In this document: piece by piece, positions 20,100 through 56,021 of the stretch
Layout: the number at the start of each line of letters is the position of its first letter
How positions within the stretch are numbered: the stretch's first letter is position 1
Assembly (NCBI GenBank): GCA_031963005.1
Contig: JASSUL010000005.1
Location: 82,939-146,938 of the forward strand
Reading direction: 5' to 3'
Origin: Mycoavidus cysteinexigens
GTDB lineage: Bacteria; Pseudomonadota; Gammaproteobacteria; Burkholderiales; Burkholderiaceae
Length of the DNA: 64,000 bases
Position numbers and translations under genes: made by a program
Notes under the pieces: generated by a model
Database searches by the model: none
Seen by the model: only the letters and a program-made list of their open reading frames with translations
Told to the model about the DNA's origin: nothing

Positions 20100-22205
20100 T
20101 TAATTGGCTTGCTGTGCAGCAGGCAATCCATAGATTTTGACTTTTAAACGCTTGCGCACCGCGGCTGTATAAGCACTTAATTCGATTTGCCCCGCAATTT
20201 GGCCCAGTTGCTGCTGCGCAGATTCCATTACATTAGGCAAGATCATGGGATTACGTATAGCATTCAGACGATAAATAACATAGCCTGTCGGACCTAGATC
20301 TACACCAATGTACTGGGGCAAGTCCACCGCGTTTTCCTGTCCTTTTTCAGATGCAGATGGAAGCGCTGCTACCGGTGGTATTGTAGCAGCCGGTTTTTCT
20401 GTCCCAGGCTCTTTCGCGTTAGCGGTTTGCGCCACAATGGTTTTTGAAGTGCTAGCCTTTTGCGCTTCTGCAGCACCCACTACACGAGCAGACGCATTCA
20501 CTTTAAAGATCGCATCAATCGCCTGGGCAGGTAAAGACCCGGTATTAGCCCGCGTAAGGATCATTGCAGGCGAAAAATCAGCGGGCGCTCCATGAGGTAC
20601 TCCATTTTGCGCTTGCAGCGCAGCCAATTTAGCCCGCCCTTCTTTTTTAGCACGCTCAGCCGCTTGTATTGCGATCACTTTGGCCTTCACTTCGCGTATT
20701 ACGCTGCGTAAAGGTTTTTGTGCTTTAGGAGTATGACGCACCACGCGCGCTGCGATTAAGGTACGCTCGCCCACCTCGATAGCCGTCGTATTGTGTTTCG
20801 CCTTGACCACTTCCTCACTAAATACCGCATTGAGAAAAGCTGCCTGATTGAGCGGATGACTCGCCGATAACGCCGAGTTAGCCGTATGTGTCACTGTCGC
20901 GGTTTTACGCGTCAATCCAAATTTTTCTGCAACGGGCGCTAAGCTCGCAGACTGCTCATAGAGCAAATCAGAAAATAAGGCAGAGGCTTCCGAAAAACGT
21001 TGGGCAGCTTCTTGATTTTGCAGTGTAGCGACGATACGTGCCCGCACTTCCGGGAAAGCTAGCGTGACAGCGGGTTTAGAGTCAATCATCTGAATAATAT
21101 GATACCCATATTGGGACTGGACTATTTCACTAATCTGCCCACGCTGTAAGCTAAAGGCTGCCGCCTCAAATGGAGGATCCATTTGACGCCGGCCAAAATA
21201 GCCTAAATCCCCTCCTCTACTGGCTGAACCAGGATCTTGCGAGAATTTTTTGGCTAAAGCATCAAATTGTTTAGGATTAGCACGTAACTGCACGAGTAAT
21301 TCTTCAGCCTGAGCACGCACAGCAGCGATCTCTTGCTCCGAGGCCCCTTCTGCCGGCATCAGCAAAATATGGCGAGCACGCACACGCTCTTCATTTTTAT
21401 ACTCTGCAAGGTGTTCCTGGTAATATTTTTTTAGCGCAGCTTCAGAAGGCTCTTTAGTCGGCGCAAAATGCGCTGCATTCAATATGACATATTCGATGAC
21501 GGCCTGTTCCGGCTGTATAAAATCATGCACATGACTATCATAGTAAGCTTGTAATGCTTCCTGAGTTGGTGGCGCATTTTTAAGGTCAGGATGCGGTAAA
21601 AAGTGCATTGACTGCACCTCGCGCTGTTGCAGCGAAGCAATTAAAAAAGGCGTGACCAAAATAGAGGGAACAAAAGCGCTTGCAGCAATACTTTGGCTGA
21701 GCTGCCCTGCTGCTAATATTGAACGCACACGCTCATCCAACTGTTCCGCAGTCATACCCTGCGCGGCTAATAATTGATTATAGGCCTTCAAATCGATAGA
21801 CCCATCTGGCTTACGAAGCTTTGCAATCGCAGGAATATTCAATAAGGCACTGCGGATCACCTCATCTGGAACATATAAGCGCTGCTCTTTCGCTTCTTCT
21901 GTCATTAAACGCTGCTCGATAAGACTATCTAGCAAAGCGCTTCGAAAAGCTGGGGTATTAATCGTTTGCACATCAAAGCTTGCACCAAACATGCTTTGAA
22001 TTTGCTGTAAACGCTCCTGCAATACTACGCTGTACTCTCGATAATCAATCTTCGTGCCGTTTACACTAGCCACATCGGGCCCCGACCTAGAGGCATGGCG
22101 AGTACTCTGAATTCCTACCAGCCCTAAACCTGGCAAGATAAATAGCGCCAGCAGCACCTGCATCAAACGTTTATGATTACGAAAAAAATCAAGCATAGGA
22201 AGCAA
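20100..22205 (-). CDS. ppiD: Periplasmic chaperone / peptidyl-prolyl isomerase, PpiD-like
   Basis: N-terminal membrane anchor, SurA-N-like region, parvulin domain RARHILL..GGDLGYFGRRQMDPPFEAAAF..YGYHII; 701 aa with an Ala/Pro-rich insert. Confidence 0.85.
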   Translation of the reverse strand: MLPMLDFFRNHKRLMQVLLALFILPGLGLVGIQSTRHASRSGPDVASVNGTKIDYREYSVVLQERLQQIQSMFGASFDVQTINTPAFRSALLDSLIEQRLMTEEAKEQRLYVPDEVIRSALLNIPAIAKLRKPDGSIDLKAYNQLLAAQGMTAEQLDERVRSILAAGQLSQSIAASAFVPSILVTPFLIASLQQREVQSMHFLPHPDLKNAPPTQEALQAYYDSHVHDFIQPEQAVIEYVILNAAHFAPTKEPSEAALKKYYQEHLAEYKNEERVRARHILLMPAEGASEQEIAAVRAQAEELLVQLRANPKQFDALAKKFSQDPGSASRGGDLGYFGRRQMDPPFEAAAFSLQRGQISEIVQSQYGYHIIQMIDSKPAVTLAFPEVRARIVATLQNQEAAQRFSEASALFSDLLYEQSASLAPVAEKFGLTRKTATVTHTANSALSASHPLNQAAFLNAVFSEEVVKAKHNTTAIEVGERTLIAARVVRHTPKAQKPLRSVIREVKAKVIAIQAAERAKKEGRAKLAALQAQNGVPHGAPADFSPAMILTRANTGSLPAQAIDAIFKVNASARVVGAAEAQKASTSKTIVAQTANAKEPGTEKPAATIPPVAALPSASEKGQENAVDLPQYIGVDLGPTGYVIYRLNAIRNPMILPNVMESAQQQLGQIAGQIELSAYTAAVRKRLKVKIYGLPAAQQAN

Positions 22206-22281
22206 AAATCGAAAAAGGACAAAAAAACGGCGCTCTAAAAGCGCCAGAGGCTTAGAGCCTGTGTTTCTATCATCTATTAAC

Positions 22282-22383
22282 TAGACCTTTTTCGCAAGCC
22301 CGTAGCGGCGTTATTCCTTCTTGCCGTACTGTGTGTGCTGTCTGCGTCGGAATTCCTTGCTACGGGCTTGCGAAAAAGGTCTA
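22282..22383. repeat. Family B palindromic element (copy B1)
   Basis: TAGACCTTTTTCGCAAGCCCGTAGCGG..GGAATTCCTTGCTACGGGCTTGCGAAAAAGGTCTA; outer stem of about 25 bp. Confidence 0.9.
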
Positions 22384-22673
22384 GTGACAGTTAGTCTAAA
22401 ACTATATAGGTTGACTGATAAGCTCTAACAAAGCGCGCACTCATCTTGTGATGAAGCCACCTTCAAAAATCAGTTCAATATAATACAAAAAATAGGGGGA
22501 AAATCAGCCATGCACCGTGAAAGTATTGCAAAAACCTACTGGATAGAAAACCCCGCAGGAGCGCAAAACAAAGGCATTAATTGAAGCATTAATTGGGGCA
22601 TTAACACAGTGGAGCATTAATAGGAGGCGCAAAAAGAAGGCCGCCTTATTAGGACTATAAGCAAATGAGAGGG

Positions 22674-22750
22674 TGGTGGGTGCTGAGAGGCTCGAACTCC
22701 CGACCTAAGCCTTGTAAGGGCTCCGCTCTACCAACTGAGCTAAGCACCCC
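22674..22750 (-). tRNA. tRNA-Val (anticodon UAC), CCA encoded
   Basis: Reverse complement GGGGTGCTTAGCTCAGTTGGTAGAGCGGAGCCCTTACAAGGCTTAGGTCGGGAGTTCGAGCCTCTCAGCACCCACCA folds as a cloverleaf; anticodon loop CTTACAA. Confidence 0.93.
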
Positions 22751-23127
22751 CGCTCGATTCACTTACAGAGCAAACTACGTTTGCCGTTTTTGAGAAGCTG
22801 CGCAGTCTACCCCATCGAACCCACTTTGTCACGCAAAAATTACGCTTCTTTGTGATTTTCTTGCAAAAAACGCAAGCCAGCATTACAAACGGTTAATTCG
22901 CAGACCAAGCGCTCGAGCCGATCACAGCCCACCGAAAATATCCAGGATTTCGGCGCTTCCCTAGACAAAATGAAACCCTCCATTCAATAGCTCAGAAAAA
23001 AGTGTCCTGACCAAGCCGTGATGGCGGTGTTTTGCATTTTCACCCAATTCGCTATTAATTAGCGCAATGCCATATTTATATAGCTACTACTTTAAAGGCA
23101 TTTCCCTTTAGTGACTGCACCACCCAA

Positions 23128-23160
23128 AGTCCCGCATCGCTTGTTAGAACGTGCGGGACT
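23128..23160 (-). terminator. Hairpin downstream of the 308-aa ORF (weak T-run)
   Basis: AGTCCCGCA..TGCGGGACT, 9-bp stem, 15-nt loop. Confidence 0.35.
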
Positions 23161-23207
23161 GTTGTGAAATTTGATGAATTTTTTATTAAAATTTTTTGGA
23201 GATAAGG

Positions 23208-24134
23208 TCAGTCAATTTCGAATTCATTCGAAGGAGCTCTACTTTTTAGTTCTTTGTAGCCATAGATTTTAACTTTTAGTCTTTCGTAGCCACTATAGAT
23301 GCTACTTTTTAATCTTTTGTAGCTAGTATAGACGCTATTTTCTAATCTTTTGTAGCCAATATAGACGCTATTTTCTAGTTTTTTGTAGCTAGTATAGATG
23401 CTACTTTCTAGTTTTTTGTAGCCAGTACCCTGCTTTGAACTCTTAGATTGAGTGCTCTGTACATATGTGGCGCTCTGGGTAATTTGGTGTGCAGGCGGCT
23501 CCGATACGTATGATTGACTATCGTTTTGCTGTCCTCTTCCTGCATTACTACTCTGTTGGGTATAGAGATCGTGCTGATGGGTATTGTGTACTAGATTATT
23601 AATCGTATGTTGTTGAAGATGAGACCCGTGTTGAGTGGTATCACTTAGTTGCAGCACTGATTCAGTATTTGCAGCTGGCTTATAGTTCTTCGAATAGGGG
23701 CCCGTTGGTGGCCATATAGGTGGTGGCAGTACGTATGCATCGTTTTGCTGCCTTCCTCCCGCATTACTACTGTGTGGGGTATAGAGATTGTGTTGATAGG
23801 TATTGTGTACACGATTATTCATCGTGTGTTGTTGAAGATGAGGCTCATATTGAGTGGTATAACTTTGTTGCGACGCTAATCCAGTATTGTTTTGAAAAGA
23901 TGTAGCTGGCTGATCGTAGTTTATTGGTATTTCTGTTTGAACAACCTCTTGAAATGTAGGGATTGGGCTATCACTGCCTTTATTTCTACGCCCTATCAAA
24001 GAAGATAGACTGCCAGCATGTGTTTCAAAAGAAGAGGCTATTCTATTTTTAAACTTATTAAAGGTCGTTTTTGGCTCGTTAGATGGATTAGATAGAAATG
24101 GTCTTGTATTTTTTGTTTTTTCTATGTAGGACAT
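23208..24134 (-). CDS. Orphan Q/N/H/T/Y-rich repeat protein, 308 aa; candidate effector
   Basis: GGAG about 9 nt before the ATG; internal duplication of about 55 aa; six C-terminal 11-residue YxxL repeats; I recognise no family. Confidence 0.7.
   Translation of the reverse strand: MSYIEKTKNTRPFLSNPSNEPKTTFNKFKNRIASSFETHAGSLSSLIGRRNKGSDSPIPTFQEVVQTEIPINYDQPATSFQNNTGLASQQSYTTQYEPHLQQHTMNNRVHNTYQHNLYTPHSSNAGGRQQNDAYVLPPPIWPPTGPYSKNYKPAANTESVLQLSDTTQHGSHLQQHTINNLVHNTHQHDLYTQQSSNAGRGQQNDSQSYVSEPPAHQITQSATYVQSTQSKSSKQGTGYKKLESSIYTSYKKLENSVYIGYKRLENSVYTSYKRLKSSIYSGYERLKVKIYGYKELKSRAPSNEFEID
23244..23423 (-). repeat. Tandem 33-bp coding repeat (about 5.5 units) encoding the 11-residue units GYKKLESSIYT / SYKKLENSVYI / GYKRLENSVYT / SYKRLKSSIYS / GYERLKVKIY / GYKELK
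   Basis: Read directly from the translation and the DNA periodicity. Confidence 0.85.
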
Positions 24135-24371
24135 ATTGCACTCCAGTACATAAATTAATATATCTAAAAATAATATAATTCATATACAGTTATACCTCCT
24201 TGCAGGAGAAGGTAGGCACGAAATGCGAAAATATGTACAATAAAGCGTAGATCTATCTGTGATAGTTATTTTGTATTTTTAATTAAATTCGTTTTTCTTT
24301 GCAATTTTCCAGATAACTTATAAGTTATTTTCTAGACAGCATAAAACCAAGTAGAAATATATAAAAAATAT

Positions 24372-24803
24372 ATGACTATTTGCTCCAAAATAAGTTCTAT
24401 TTTTAATAAAAATAGTAGCAACACTACCCAACCCTCTAGAGCTCCAGCCAGCTTTACAAGGAGGGATTCTCTACCTTCCCTTATGGAAAATTGCATAAAC
24501 GATCCAAGCGGACACAATTTTTTCACACTAGGTTAGAAATATAGCGAGAGTTATCGAGAATTTAAAAAAAACATTCCAGGAAGTGATGATGAAAATGATT
24601 CAGAAATTGCAAAAGAAAAAGAATTGCATATAGAAACTATGAGATTTGCCATATCCACATCTATTATTCCTGTTAGAGAAGTAATACCTTCTGCACAGGC
24701 GGGAAACTCTAGTAGAAATACTCCACAATCTCAAAATGCGCAACCGGTTCAATCCGAACCATTTATCCCACATTTCCCAAGAAAATGCACTCACAGACTA
24801 TAA
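24372..24803 (+). pseudogene. 143-codon AT-rich reading frame interrupted by one in-frame TAG (24534-24536); divergent from the 308-aa gene
   Basis: MTICSKISSIFNKNSSNTTQPSRAPASF..FFTLG*KYSESYREFKK..PRKCTHRL in a single frame; each half is under 60 codons, so it is missing from the ORF track. Confidence 0.4.
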
Positions 24804-24885
24804 TTGTCTACCTAGCTCAACGCTCATGAATGAGTTCGAATCAGCCATATCTGAGCTTCCTTCATTTAAGCAGCCTATACCCCGC

Positions 24886-25137
24886 TAATAACTTCACTGA
24901 TGTTACGCAGGTATTCAAAAAGACCGTGGTCGTCATGTTGGGGTTCCTTCGTCACCCCAACCTACGAAAATGGGTAAGTGAAAGAGATTCATCCAACTCT
25001 ACCAACCACCAGAAAAAGCAAAGGACAGTAGGTTGGGGTGACGAAGGAACCCCAACATGCATACCACCGACTTCTAATCTCTGCGTTCTACTGATTAATA
25101 ACTCGCCATCCTACAGCGTGCGTAACATCAGTAACTT
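24886..25137. repeat. Family A MITE-like element, full-length subfamily A1 (copy iii)
   Basis: Termini TAATAACTTCACTGATGTTACGCAGG / TGCGTAACATCAGTAACTT; both core arms are perfect. Confidence 0.9.
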
Positions 25138-25152
25138 AAATCGCGTTTTTTG

Positions 25153-26943
25153 CTACTCTCCCAAATTCAAGATAGCTAAAAATGCTTCTTGGGGAATTTC
25201 TACTCCTCCGACTTGTTTCATGCGCTTCTTCCCTGCTTTTTGTTTTTCTAATAGTTTTTTCTTGCGGGAGATGTCGCCTCCATAGCATTTTGCTAAAACG
25301 TTTTTTCGCAATGCTTTAATATTCTCGCGGGAGATAATCGTTGAGCCAATGGCGGCTTGAATCGCGACGTCGAACATCTGCCGTGGAATGACTTCTCGCA
25401 TTTTTGCCGCGATCTCACGGCCTCGCGACTGGCTTTGTGAGCGATGGACGATGAGCGATAAGGCATCGACCTTGGTGCCATTAATCATCATATCGATTTT
25501 TACTACATCGGCAGACGCATATTCTTTAAATTCATAATCCATAGACGCATAGCCTCTAGAGATCGATTTAAGTCGGTCAAAAAAGTCGAGTACGATTTCC
25601 GCCATGGGAATGTCATAGGTCAGCTGTAACTGCCTACTGTGATATTGCATATTGATCTGCACACCCCGTTTTTGTGTACACAAGCTCATTATTTGGCCGG
25701 CATATTCTTGCGGCAGATAGACATTCAGTCGAACTAAAGGTTCGCGAATGCTCTCGATTTTTGAAGGGTCGGGCAATTTGGAAGGGTTTTCAATTTTTAT
25801 TACTTCGCCATCGCGCTGCACCACTTCATAAATCACGGTCGGGGCAGTCGTGATTAATTGCATTCCAAATTCGCGCTCAAGACGCTCTTGGACAATGTCC
25901 ATATGCAGCAAGCCTAAAAAGCCGCATCGAAAGCCGAATCCTAGCGCCTGGGATGATTCCGGCTCATATTGCAGGGAGGCATCGTTGAGTTGCAATTTTT
26001 CAAGCGACTCACGGAGCGCTTCGTATTGATTGGATTCAATAGGGTAAAGGCCCGCAAACACCTGCGGCTTCACTTCTTTAAAACCTGGAAGGGGCGTACT
26101 GGTTGGATTGCGCGCTTGCGTGATGGTATCTCCAACACGAGCCGCTTTAAGCTCTTTAATACCGGCGATAATAAAACCGACTTCTCCCGCGCTGAGTACA
26201 GCGCAATCCAACGCTTTAGGCGTGAATTTTCCAAGGCGTTCGACCAAAAACTGTGCGCCATTGGCCATAAAGCGAATGGTCTCTTTCGGTTTCAGCGTGC
26301 CTTGCACAACCCGCGTGAGTACGACCACGCCTACATAGGGATCAAACCAAGAATCTAAAACCATCGCCGCTAATGGCGCTTGCGCATCGCCTACTGGAGG
26401 AGGAACTTGTGCGATCAATGCCTCTAGCACATCAGCAACACCCTCGCCGGTTTTCGCACTACATCGCACTGCCTCTGTAGCATCAATACCGATCACATCG
26501 CCAATTTCTGCTATCGCATTTTCAGGATTCGCGGAAGGCAAATCGATTTTATTAAGAATAGGTACGACCTCTACCCCTAACTCTAAGGCGGTATAGCAAT
26601 TTGCAACGGTCTGCGCCTCCACCCCTTGACTCGCATCCACGACTAATAATGCGCCTTCACAAGCGGATAAAGAGCGGCTGACTTCATAAGAAAAATCGAC
26701 ATGTCCGGGGGTGTCGATTAAATTTAAATTATAGGTTTCTCCATCTCGCGCTTTATATTGGAGTGCCGCCGTTTGCGCTTTGATGGTAATACCCCGTTCA
26801 CGCTCCAGAGCCATTGAATCGAGCACTTGCGATTCCATTTCACGATCAGAAAGCCCTCCGCACATTTGGATAATGCGATCTGCCAGCGTTGATTTACCAT
26901 GATCAATATGGGCAATGATCGAAAAATTACGAATGTGTTTCAT
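25153..26943 (-). CDS. lepA: Elongation factor 4 (LepA)
   Basis: [23 protein letters not shown].. GTPase; an alternative ATG lies 12 nt upstream at 26955. Confidence 0.96.
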
Positions 26944-27016
26944 GCAAGCGCTCATAGCTCATAAAAATCAGTGTGTGGCTTTTATCCAATCCGCCAATCA
27001 GGGTATTACATGGGTA

Positions 27017-27643
27017 CTACTCACTTGCATCATGGGATGCACCTAATACTGGCCGAAGCTTTTGCGCAATGACTTCTCTTGCGCGAGAAATACGCGAACG
27101 CACGGTCCCTACTGGACACTGCATAATCTGGGCAATTTCTCGGTAACTGAGCCCCTCTATTTCACATAGCATAATGGCCATGCGTCGCTCTTCCGATAAA
27201 AAAGCCAGTGCATCGCTCAATGTCTGCTCAATTTGCTTATTCATCAATGCAGACTCTGGCGTGTTGAAATCCTGGAGTGCACGTTCGGATTCTTCTAACT
27301 GTGCAGGATCGGCATCTTCTCTACTGAGATGCCCAAGCCCAGTGCGATCCGAGGTCATTAAATGATTTTTGGCCGTATTGATCGCAATCCGATATAACCA
27401 AGTGTAAAAACTAGACTCTAATCTAAAATTCGGGAGTGCTCGGTATGCTTTGATAAAGGCGTCCTGCGCAACATCATCCGCCTCATCGCCATGAGGGACA
27501 AAGCGCGTGACCAAGCGCATGATTTTACGACGATATTTCGCTACCAAGGACTCAAAAGCGGCTATATCTCCCTGCTGAACCCGTTTGACGATACTGTGAT
27601 CGATATCTTTCTCATTCACTCCTTGCTCCCTTAAGCCTCTCAT
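27017..27643 (-). CDS. rpoE: ECF sigma factor RpoE (sigma-24 / AlgU type)
   Basis: Region 2 DVAQDAFIKAYRAL..FYTWLYRIAINTAKN and region 4 LSYREIAQIMQCPVGTVRSRISRAR. Confidence 0.9.
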   Translation of the reverse strand: MRGLREQGVNEKDIDHSIVKRVQQGDIAAFESLVAKYRRKIMRLVTRFVPHGDEADDVAQDAFIKAYRALPNFRLESSFYTWLYRIAINTAKNHLMTSDRTGLGHLSREDADPAQLEESERALQDFNTPESALMNKQIEQTLSDALAFLSEERRMAIMLCEIEGLSYREIAQIMQCPVGTVRSRISRAREVIAQKLRPVLGASHDASE

Positions 27644-27766
27644 AGAGATCCATAGTGAGCGGATTGCTATGAAAGGAATAAGGGTCAGAAGTCGAAAACC
27701 TAAAGAGAAGATACTGAAAATACAGGACCGTCCTACGCGCTTAGTGCGCCCTGAGGCTTTGGGGTT

Positions 27767-27790
27767 TTAGAACCGATATAAGGTTCTTAG
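27767..27790. repeat. Family D-like short hairpin whose right arm contains the fabF stop codon
   Basis: TTAGAACC-GATATAA-GGTTCTTAG. Confidence 0.5.
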
Positions 27791-29022
27791 ATGCGCTTAA
27801 AGACCAATGTCCCATTAGTCCCACCAAATCCAAACGAATTGGACATCGCTATCTCAACCGGCATTTCACGCGCGGTATTCGCACAGTAATCCAAATCGCA
27901 TTCGGGATCAGGGTTGGTTAGATTAATCGTGGGTGGGACGATTTGTTTTTGCACCGCCAATGCCGTATATACCGCTTCGATGCCCCCTGCTGCTCCCAAT
28001 AAATGGCCGGTCATCGATTTAGTCGAGCTTACAACGGGGACCCTGCCCGATTGAAATGCATGTTTTACCGCCATTGTTTCCGCGATGTCCCCTAAAGGAG
28101 TCGAAGTACCATGGGCATTGATATAGTCCACTTGATCCAGATTCACGCCGGCATCTTTCAAGGCACTGACCATACAACGGCGCGCACCTTCCCCATCTTT
28201 ACTGGGAGCGGTCATATGGTAAGCGTCGCCAGTACGTCCATATCCTATTAATTCACAATAGATTTTGGCACCGCGCGCTTTGGCATGTTCATATTCTTCT
28301 AAAACTAGCACTCCTGCGCCTTCACCTAGCACGAATCCATCGCGATCACGGTCAAAAGGCCGGCTAGCCGCAGCGGGATCATCATTACGCACCGATAAAG
28401 CGCGTAATGCGGCAAATCCGCCAATCCCGAGCGGAGAAATCGTAGCTTCAGCCCCTCCGGCTAGCATCACATCAGCATCACCGTATCCAATGATGCGCAT
28501 CGCTTCACCAATCGAATGCGTGCCGGTTGTACAGGCTGTCACAATCGCGAGATTCGGGCCTTTGATACCAAAACGGATCGACAAATGCCCCGCAATCATA
28601 TTTGTAATAGAAGCTGGCACGAAAAAAGGCGTAATCCGCTTGGGCCCACGTTGCAGCAATTCGGTTTGCGTGTTTTCAATCGAGGGCAGCCCTCCTATAC
28701 CGGAACCTATGATGATTCCAATACGTTCCGCATTGTCTTCGGTGACCTCTAATCCGCTATCGGTTAAAGCCTGAACGCCTGCGGCAAAACCATAGTGGAT
28801 AAAAGTATCCATATGCCGCGCCTCTTTGGCGGGCAAATACTCACTAATCTGGAAATCCTTCACCTCACCAGCAAACTGGCAAGAAAAAAGGCTAGCATCA
28901 AATTTGGTAATAGGGGCAATACCGGAACGTCCGGCGATCAGATTCGCCCATCCTTGCTCTACAGTATTACCTACGGGTGAAATATGTCCTAAACCCGTTA
29001 CTACTACACGGCGACGATTCAC
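27787..29022 (-). CDS. fabF: 3-oxoacyl-ACP synthase II
   Basis: 411 aa; RRVVVTGLG, active-site context [14 protein letters not shown], and GHLLGAAG. Confidence 0.96.
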
Positions 29023-29091: not shown

Positions 29092-29202
29092 TAGACTTCT
29101 TTCGCAACCCCGTGGCGGCGTCATTCTTCCCGTTTTTTTACATTAAGTACAGTGTACTGGCAGCAAAGGAATTCCTTGCTACGGGGTTGCGAAAGAGGTC
29201 TA
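29092..29202. repeat. Family B palindromic element (copy B2), between acpP and fabF
   Basis: TAGACTTCTTTCGCAACCCCGTGGCGG..GGAATTCCTTGCTACGGGGTTGCGAAAGAGGTCTA. Confidence 0.9.
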
Positions 29203-29388
29203 TTGATCTGCAGAACCTGTTCAAAGTTTTCCAATTGGACCTCTATCCCAAGACTATAAAAAGGGTCCACCCTCGGAAAAGCAGGCGCGTAGGATTGCCG
29301 TGTACTTTAACACGATAAGTCCTAAGACACTGCAATCCGCAAAGATGAACCCTGAAGATAGTCCATTTGGGGAAATGGTTAACGGCTT

Positions 29389-35451: not shown

Positions 35452-35697
35452 TTAATAACTGATGTTATGCAGGCATTCAAAAAGACCGTGGTCATCATGT
35501 TGGGGTTCCTCCGTCACCACCAACCTACGAAAATGGGTAGGTGAAAGGGATTCATCAAACTCCACCTACCACTAGAAAAGGCAAAGGACGGTAGGTTGGT
35601 GGTGAGGCACGAACCCCAACGTACGTACCACCTACTTCTAATTTTTGCGCTCTACCGATCAATAACTCGCCTTTCTACAACCTGCGTAGCATCACTT
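35452..35697. repeat. Family A MITE-like element, full-length A1 (copy iv)
   Basis: Collinear with 24886-25137, including the central GGGTAGGTGAAAGGGATTCATCAAACTCCACCTACCACTAGAAAAGGCAAAGGAC segment. Confidence 0.9.
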
Positions 35698-55874: not shown

Positions 55875-56021
55875 GTAGGTTGGTGGTGACGAAGGAACCC
55901 CAACATGCACGCCGCGGCATCCTTGATGATCCGCTTACGATTATCTAAAAGCAGAAATTAAAAATCTGCTGTATGCATGTTGGGGTTCCGTATTTGATTC
56001 AATTCGTCACCGCCAACCTAC
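55875..56021. repeat. Family A-derived element with permuted arm order (copy vi)
   Basis: GTAGGTTGGTGGTGACGAAGGAACCCCAACATG comes first and CATGTTGGGGTTCCGTATTTGATTCAATTCGTCACCGCCAACCTAC last, the opposite of other copies. Confidence 0.8.

Follow-up and report, generated by a model that had tools for sequence, protein, structure and literature searches.

A predicted amphipathic 11-residue helical repeat fused to a putatively disordered orphan region in a Mycoavidus-like endobacterium

ORF308 and its repeat systems

We analyzed a 64,000-nt stretch of DNA from Mycoavidus cysteinexigens (assembly GCA_031963005.1, contig JASSUL010000005.1; the whole stretch is referred to as the window), and focused on ORF308, an open reading frame (ORF) whose product ends in an array of 11-residue repeats. 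New is the combination, in an endofungal bacterium, of a repeat of a known kind, an 11-mer predicted to form an amphipathic helix, with an orphan region predicted to be disordered. The features of the locus are collected in Table 1.

Table 1. Coordinates of ORF308, its internal repeats and its surroundings in the window
Feature	Coordinates	Strand	Description	Basis
ORF308	23208..24134	-	308 aa; strongly hydrophilic (grand average of hydropathy, GRAVY, -1.06); S/T/Q/N/Y/H-rich	ORF list
Shine-Dalgarno-like motif GGAG	24141..24144	-	6 nt upstream of the ORF308 ATG; putative role	Read from sequence
Hairpin AGTCCCGCA-15 nt-TGCGGGACT	23128..23160	-	~50 nt past the ORF308 stop codon	Read from sequence
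33-bp tandem array	23239..23424	-	Encodes the 11-aa repeat; 5.7 copies, 81% matches, score 195	Tandem Repeats Finder
150-nt internal duplication, first copy, TTQYEPHLQQHTMNNRVHNTYQHNLYTPHSSNAGGRQQND	23739..23888	-		Repeat search
150-nt internal duplication, second copy, protein TTQHGSHLQQHTINNLVHNTHQHDLYTQQSSNAGRGQQND	23520..23669	-	Inside the predicted disordered region	Repeat search
tRNA-Val(TAC)	22674..22749	-	Conserved downstream neighbor of ORF308, also in relatives	ARAGORN and Rfam
ppiD	20100..22205	-	Neighbor of ORF308	
lepA	25153..26955	-	Neighbor of ORF308	
Low-GC (guanine plus cytosine) DNA carrying ORF308	22811..24895		~2.1 kb; no similarity to relatives L090, L092 and L093	Synteny and blastn
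Miniature inverted-repeat transposable element (MITE)-like palindromic element, core GTTGGGGTGACGAAGGAACCCCAAC	24896..25130		Between lepA and the unique segment; multi-copy	

At the base composition of ORF308, a stop-free run of 308 codons (927 nt) has a probability of ~3.5e-9, and the other five frames across the same span contain 13-35 stops each. ORF308 is a real ORF in the statistical sense, not a chance open frame. Its product has no signal peptide, lipobox or transmembrane (TM) segment, the maximum Kyte-Doolittle value over 19 residues being 0.15. The hairpin past the stop codon is a possible terminator; its T tract is weak, and a terminator consensus scan gave no call there.

The C-terminus of ORF308 is made of 5.5 copies of the 11-residue unit YKKLENSVYTS. 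The five full units read YKKLESSIYTS, YKKLENSVYIG, YKRLENSVYTS, YKRLKSSIYSG and YERLKVKIYG(Y), after which a step of 10 residues leads to YKEL; the protein ends with the short acidic sequence NEFEID. Tyr, Leu and Ile/Val are retained in all units. An earlier first-pass annotation of this DNA had read this region as six YxxL motifs in a row, and its description proved accurate: the C-terminus that it quoted (residues 238-297, encoded by 23244-23423) matches letter for letter, the first residues of the motifs YKKL, YKKL, YKRL, YKRL, YERL and YKEL are 239, 250, 261, 272, 283 and 293, with gaps of 7, 7, 7, 7 and 6 residues, and the 33-bp tandem array behind them was recovered by Tandem Repeats Finder and by a second repeat search, which returned the same register. 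Such regularity is well beyond what chance would produce.

A second repeat system, the 150-nt duplication, lies upstream of the array and falls in the middle part of ORF308. Its two copies are 84% identical at a spacing of 219, and the ratio of nonsynonymous to synonymous differences per site (pN/pS) between them is ~0.44. The same ratio between the 11-aa units is ~1.4, which gives no clear sign of purifying selection, the counts being small and the value ambiguous. Both repeat systems remain in frame.

The predicted helix

AlphaFold2, run on the single sequence, modeled residues 236-299 of ORF308 as one uninterrupted helix with a predicted local distance difference test (pLDDT) score of 87-94, while nearly everything outside this segment stayed at pLDDT <50; the first ~235 residues are of low complexity and predicted to be disordered. 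Over the 64 helix residues, the hydrophobic moment reached 0.312 at 98.2 degrees, compared with 0.296 at 100 and 0.037 at 105 degrees. It is thus maximal at the 11/3 angle and ~3.5 standard deviations above the value for shuffled helix sequences (0.110 ± 0.058). Eleven residues would make three turns, so that Tyr1, Leu4, Ile/Val8 and Tyr9 of every unit would fall on one face, within an arc of ~130 degrees, with Lys2, Lys3, Ser/Asn6, Ser7, Thr10 and Ser11 on the polar face. The net charge of the segment is +10, and the 11/3 geometry of the repeat therefore points to a long cationic amphipathic helix. The first-pass annotation had offered an 11-mer amphipathic helix as its alternative reading; the predicted helix, the moment peak at 98.2 degrees and the distribution of residues over the helical faces all favor it.

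Repeats of 11 residues that form 3-11 helices and fold upon lipid contact have been characterized in apolipoproteins, alpha-synuclein and perilipins (PMC5889406). ORF308 resembles apolipoproteins A and E, perilipins 1-5, alpha-synuclein and CCT-alpha in its strict 11-residue periodicity and in its long uninterrupted helix, which in ORF308 is a prediction. As in Plin4, the moment peaks at ~98-100 degrees (0.31 in ORF308 and 0.257 in Plin4; PMC5889406), and the polar face is rich in Lys, Ser and Thr, with a net positive charge. This likeness is one of kind only: ORF308 has no sequence homology to the apolipoprotein, perilipin and synuclein proteins and no Pfam family at E ≤ 10. Its apolar face is rich in tyrosine, whereas the aromatic fraction of the Plin4 helix is 0.002 (PMC5889406, Table 1 of that paper). 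In addition, the ORF308 helix is only ~64 residues long and comes from a bacterium, and its binding to lipids or membranes is putative.

The same periodicity may instead reflect a hendecad coiled coil, in which the 11-residue repeat would homo-oligomerize into a right-handed or straight bundle and serve as a rod or scaffold rather than as a lipid binder. Such an arrangement would draw on the 11/3 periodicity, with hydrophobic residues at positions a (Ile/Val8), e (Tyr1) and h (Leu4) and a small residue at d (Ser/Gly11), and a straight helix predicted by AlphaFold2 with very high confidence is typical for coiled-coil segments modeled as monomers. However, with a net charge of +10 on its 64 residues, the chains of a parallel homo-oligomer would repel one another, cores rich in tyrosine are uncommon, and the mean hydrophobicity is low. 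We consider a coiled coil a minority possibility, although one to be taken seriously.

Relatives of the repeat unit

The first-pass annotation had called the protein an orphan, and our searches bear this out. Among 5.8 billion clusters, ORF308 matched only itself; residues 1-215 had no match when 1.84 billion representatives were scanned exhaustively with phmmer, and no homolog of the region outside the repeat was found among ~15 billion proteins. A homolog of the whole protein was likewise absent from GTDB genome contigs, JGI metagenome contigs, IMG/VR viral contigs, 80 LepA-anchored loci and the rest of the window, and there was no match in Pfam, NCBIfam, PHROGs or the PDB. The sole other copy, which is identical, is in the Logan assembly of SRR5822800 (L001). 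A phage origin of ORF308 was considered and rejected, given the lack of matches in PHROGs and in the viral contigs.

The exhaustive phmmer search with ORF308 yielded 10 weak matches. All align to the region of the repeat (query residues 216-305), and each one inspected has 11-residue repeats itself. In three of them (P0007, P0008 and P0011; E 5e-5 to 4e-4) the unit reads GYKKIE-[ND]-x-VV-x, and a profile search brought up 5,528 clusters of small bacterial proteins with a GYKKIE-x-x-VV-x 11-mer unit, referred to below as the GYKKIE family. In the best 120 of the 5,528 clusters, the proteins are 65-138 aa long and contain no Pfam domain. Their repeats are N-terminal and are combined with a KFVxAFL(T)PD end and an acidic tail, and the family alignment has invariant Y1, E5 and V9. 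The few named members are from Butyricicoccaceae, Clostridia, Syntrophomonas and Treponema metagenome-assembled genomes (MAGs). One member modeled with the family alignment (P0061) is predicted to form one long helix (residues 2-53, pLDDT 81-88). No genuine match to the family was found in the PDB, as no stretch in the MITSUBA-1 row passes alone, and no paper containing the GYKKIE string was found in the searchable literature. Three other proteins (P0003, P0004 and P0009) represent a second 11-mer repeat family, with AEYKKIRDxAY units following a conserved N-terminal domain that starts with MC.FISW; this family has only sub-threshold matches in Pfam, NCBIfam and PHROGs.

A hidden Markov model (HMM) built from 120 GYKKIE members, with ORF308 excluded, gave ORF308 a score of 36.7 bits. 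The maximum was 7.0 bits for 300 composition shuffles and 20.3 bits for 300 within-unit permutations, which keep the 11-residue periodicity. Because ORF308 exceeds both, the order of residues inside its unit appears to be specifically shared with the GYKKIE family. The two units can broadly be written as [GS]-Y-K-[KR]-[LI]-E-[ND]-x-V-x-x, and both are predicted to form one long helix. Y1 is present in all ORF308 units and E5 in three of the five (the other two have Lys), while the invariant Val9 is replaced by Tyr in all. The architecture of ORF308 is also unlike that of the GYKKIE proteins: it has 308 aa, with C-terminal repeats preceded by a 235-residue orphan region, and lacks the KFVxAFL end. 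Since size, domain order, C-terminal end and genomic context all set ORF308 apart from the family, we treat the relationship, as read from these alignments, as repeat-level homology or convergence and not as family membership. The first-pass annotation had named, as an outcome that would speak against its reading, that the repeat belongs to a known bacterial structural protein family, and this applies in part: a widespread bacterial family does match, but it is uncharacterized and hence not a known one.

In three clostridial loci (L083, L084 and L087), the GYKKIE gene adjoins genes for small conserved membrane proteins and a HisKA/response-regulator pair; the neighbors in contigs of this type include a 124-aa protein with four TM segments and a ~177-aa protein with a C-terminal TM hairpin. 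This arrangement hints at a membrane-associated role for GYKKIE proteins. By extension from the repeat-level match, ORF308 might act in or on the bacterium itself, associating peripherally with envelope or membrane proteins, instead of being a secreted effector. Yet the ORF308 locus has none of the membrane-protein or two-component neighbors of the clostridial genes and instead contains lepA, a MITE, tRNA-Val and ppiD, its architecture is a different one, and ORF308 shares its restriction to this strain and its low GC content with the effector-like orphans of the window. We therefore regard such a role in the bacterium's own envelope as unlikely.

Genomic setting, host and likely role

Three related MAGs share the gene order rpoE-like, lepA, tRNA-Val, ppiD, sspB, carA, carB, greA, yhbY and ftsJ. 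From lepA to the conserved tRNA-Val promoter segment, the distance is ~105 nt in the relatives and ~2.34 kb in the window, where the MITE-like copy at 24896..25130 and the low-GC DNA of ~2.1 kb make up this interval. The GC content of ORF308 is 38.9% (32% at third codon positions), compared with 47-48% for lepA, ppiD and carB. By these comparisons, ORF308 is a lineage-specific accessory gene on a ~2.1-kb segment without counterpart in close relatives. A tRNA-linked genomic island was considered and rejected, as the extra DNA is located 5' of tRNA-Val and showed neither an integrase nor direct repeats. Further copies of the MITE-like palindrome (~237 bp) are found in the window at 2140-2273, 3876-3910, 35458-35694, 55875-55989, 57908-57942 and 63318-63438, and many are present in the related endobacterial MAGs L090, L092 and L093, including one at the corresponding lepA/tRNA-Val junction of L092.

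Two other peculiarities of this region were observed. In the endobacterial lineage (window 25153-29022; L090, L092 and L093), rseA, mucB and degP, which part rpoE from lepA in free-living Burkholderiaceae, are absent, and lepA is followed by tRNA-Val and ppiD, not by lepB, a pattern of shared genome reduction or rearrangement. Between tRNA-Val and ppiD there is a perfect 27-nt inverted repeat (22280-22306 and 22359-22385, with a 52-nt spacer), which is probably another small repetitive palindromic element and has a partial copy at 29178-29204.

The octapeptide RLKVKIYG is common to the C-terminus of PpiD (20124-20186) and the last, most divergent ORF308 unit (23260-23283), and the coding sequences agree at 18 of 19 nt. 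The KVKIY core is native to the PpiD of relatives (RTKVKIYP), and the L and G on either side of it occur only in the window. By itself the match lacks significance (tblastn E 0.38 within the window), and it may reflect chance, gene conversion or a seed of the repeat.

These data bear on whether ORF308 is a young gene or a remnant with little or no function, its repeats being the outcome of slippage in AT-rich acquired DNA, possibly seeded by the ppiD 3' end. That ORF308 is a singleton without homolog in any collection searched and absent from close relatives would agree with such an origin, as would the pN/pS of ~1.4 between its units and the octapeptide shared with PpiD. Conversely, a 927-nt open frame in 39%-GC DNA is highly improbable by chance, both repeat systems have stayed in frame, the 150-nt duplication has a pN/pS well below that of the units, every unit has held its Tyr, Leu and Ile/Val, a Shine-Dalgarno-like GGAG is in place, and the PpiD match has an E value of only 0.38. 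We judge a gene of little or no function to be decidedly unlikely.

The identity of the bacterium and its host was approached through LepA. The LepA of the window is ~80% identical to those of Paraburkholderia, Trinickia, Mycetohabitans and the MAG Mycoavidus cysteinexigens BRE-NVP60, and its 90%-identity cluster includes a protein annotated in the fungus Podila epicladia as well as the MAGs GCA_031963045.1, GCA_031963225.1 and GCA_031963365.1, which belong to the whole-genome shotgun accession series of BRE-NVP60. NVP60 is a strain of Mortierella gamsii (PMC9503022). The GC content of Mycoavidus is 48.9-49.0%, with which that of the window (~48%) fits (PMC5877345). Because the LepA cluster members and BRE-NVP60 tie to Mortierellaceae fungi, we infer a Mycoavidus-like, Burkholderia-related endobacterium with a host from this fungal family.

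These observations also bear on the central proposal of the first-pass annotation, that the YxxL motifs mimic the immunoreceptor tyrosine-based activation motif (ITAM) or YxxPhi sorting signals of a host cell. The ITAM pattern Y..[LI].{6,8}Y..[LI] does have five overlapping matches in ORF308, which is alike in YxxL/I-x(6-8)-YxxL/I to ITAM receptors and their viral and bacterial mimics. An ITAM or YxxPhi mimic would be delivered to the host cell, where its tyrosines would be phosphorylated and recruit tandem-SH2 (Src homology 2) kinases, or where it would engage AP adaptor complexes; the effector-like N-terminus of ORF308, the intracellular life of the bacterium and eukaryote-like features in other genes of the window would suit such a role. 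However, the five matches stem from one tandemly duplicated unit and are not independent events, and the stricter pattern [DE]..Y..[LI].{6,8}Y..[LI], with an acidic residue at -3, has zero matches. Moreover, among the 120 best-scoring members of the GYKKIE family, whose named representatives are from Clostridia and Treponema MAGs, 90 contain the ITAM pattern and all 120 contain YxxPhi-x(6-8)-YxxPhi; the second 11-mer family matches the ITAM pattern too. The pattern's presence in most best-scoring GYKKIE members marks it as a generic by-product of the structural repeat, with no evident link to ITAM signaling.

The cellular context argues in the same direction. ITAM signaling depends on Src-family and Syk/ZAP-70 kinases, and the host, judged from related sequences, is a fungus. 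Fungi have no metazoan-type tyrosine kinases, and Syk and ZAP-70 are not known outside animals. YxxPhi signals function in the unstructured tail of TM cargo, whereas ORF308 has neither a TM segment nor a lipid anchor, and its motifs are part of a predicted rigid helix (pLDDT 87-94) whose apolar face includes their Tyr and Leu, rather than of a flexible context. Mimicry of either signal is therefore not sustained, and we consider it very improbable. As the structural model suggests, the evenly spaced YxxL motifs are most likely a and d positions of a structural repeat, not phosphotyrosine or sorting signals. A caution follows for motif searches in general: any 11-residue Tyr/Leu repeat yields ITAM/YxxPhi matches automatically, and thousands of bacterial proteins unrelated to host signaling match.

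Of the 41 window ORFs examined, four are low in GC, ORF308 included. Another encodes an ankyrin-repeat protein (62174-63235, plus strand, 353 aa, GC 34%, Pfam Ank_2 E 4e-13), which is typical of intracellular symbionts. A 445-aa orphan (7716-9053, plus strand, GC 33.6%) is very rich in S/N/Q, with 58% S/T/N/Q/P among its first 50 residues, and carries internal 18/36-bp tandem repeats at 8093-8185; it has no match in Pfam, NCBIfam or PHROG. A 177-aa orphan (59580-60113, minus strand) has the lowest GC content of the window (31%), contains KKRKLD, which resembles a nuclear localization signal, and ends in CWLA at the stop codon, a CaaX-like prenylation box; its sequence makes it a candidate host-directed effector. 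Outside the window, a 349-aa ORF of L092 (GCA_031963225.1; 874-1923, minus strand, GC 33%), inserted between a TonB-dependent receptor gene and yceD, combines an F-box-like LPIEILEIILDF motif with ~36-aa tandem repeats and is a candidate eukaryote-like effector.

ORF308 fits this effector class because of its S/T/N/P-rich N-terminus, its low GC content and the ankyrin and CaaX-like neighboring orphans. S, T, N, Q and P make up 42% of its N-terminal 50 residues, the second highest value among the 41 window ORFs. It is like other low-GC accessory proteins of endofungal Burkholderiaceae, which are candidate effectors of type III and type IV secretion systems (T3SS and T4SS), in its low GC content, strain-specificity, tandem repeats and S/T/N-rich N-terminus, but unlike them it has no recognizable eukaryote-like domain. 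Mycoavidus genomes have been reported to contain a type II secretion system (T2SS), a T3SS and a T4SS (PMC5877345). Export of ORF308 to the fungal host is plausible in view of this N-terminal composition, the low GC content, the strain-specificity, the effector-like neighbors and the secretion systems of the genus.

Taken together, the reading that we favor, with a probability of roughly 0.55, is that ORF308 is an accessory protein specific to this lineage and that its cationic amphipathic 3-11 helix either attaches to an anionic membrane or lipid surface or mediates self-association. In the mechanism suggested by the models, the C-terminal helix of ~64 residues would anchor ORF308 to such a surface or drive self-association, and the N-terminal 235 residues, Q/N/S/T/H/Y-rich and predicted to be disordered, would form the exposed, functional or scaffolding part. 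Several points weigh against this. AlphaFold2 tends toward confident single helices for idealized repeats, so that in reality the segment could be disordered in solution or form an oligomeric coiled coil. The Glu/Lys at position 5 is charged yet falls within the apolar arc, and the mean hydrophobicity of the helix is low (0.198); for both reasons, membrane affinity may be weak. The pN/pS between the units does not speak for constraint on the repeat. The match to the GYKKIE family is only 36.7 bits and could be convergence; Tyr stands in place of the invariant Val9, and the architecture is unlike that of the family. Finally, the 64-kb window contains no secretion system or chaperone genes.

A more specific version holds that ORF308 is a secreted effector whose 11-mer helix, a bacterial and tyrosine-rich counterpart of the perilipin/synuclein type, coats or tethers the lipid droplets or membranes of oleaginous Mortierellaceae, with the predicted disordered, Q/N/H/Y-rich region as a scaffold or condensate arm. 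We regard this version as a long shot. If true, ORF308 would be the first effector of a bacterium-fungus symbiosis to target lipid droplets and would tie the GYKKIE family, with its 5,528 clusters, to lipid-surface binding.

As a singleton orphan, ORF308 is of modest immediate importance. If its helix does bind lipid, however, it would provide the first functional handle on the very large GYKKIE family, which has no entry in Pfam, the PDB or the searchable literature, and it would represent a bacterial, apparently independent case of the 3-11 helix principle in a symbiont of lipid-rich fungi.

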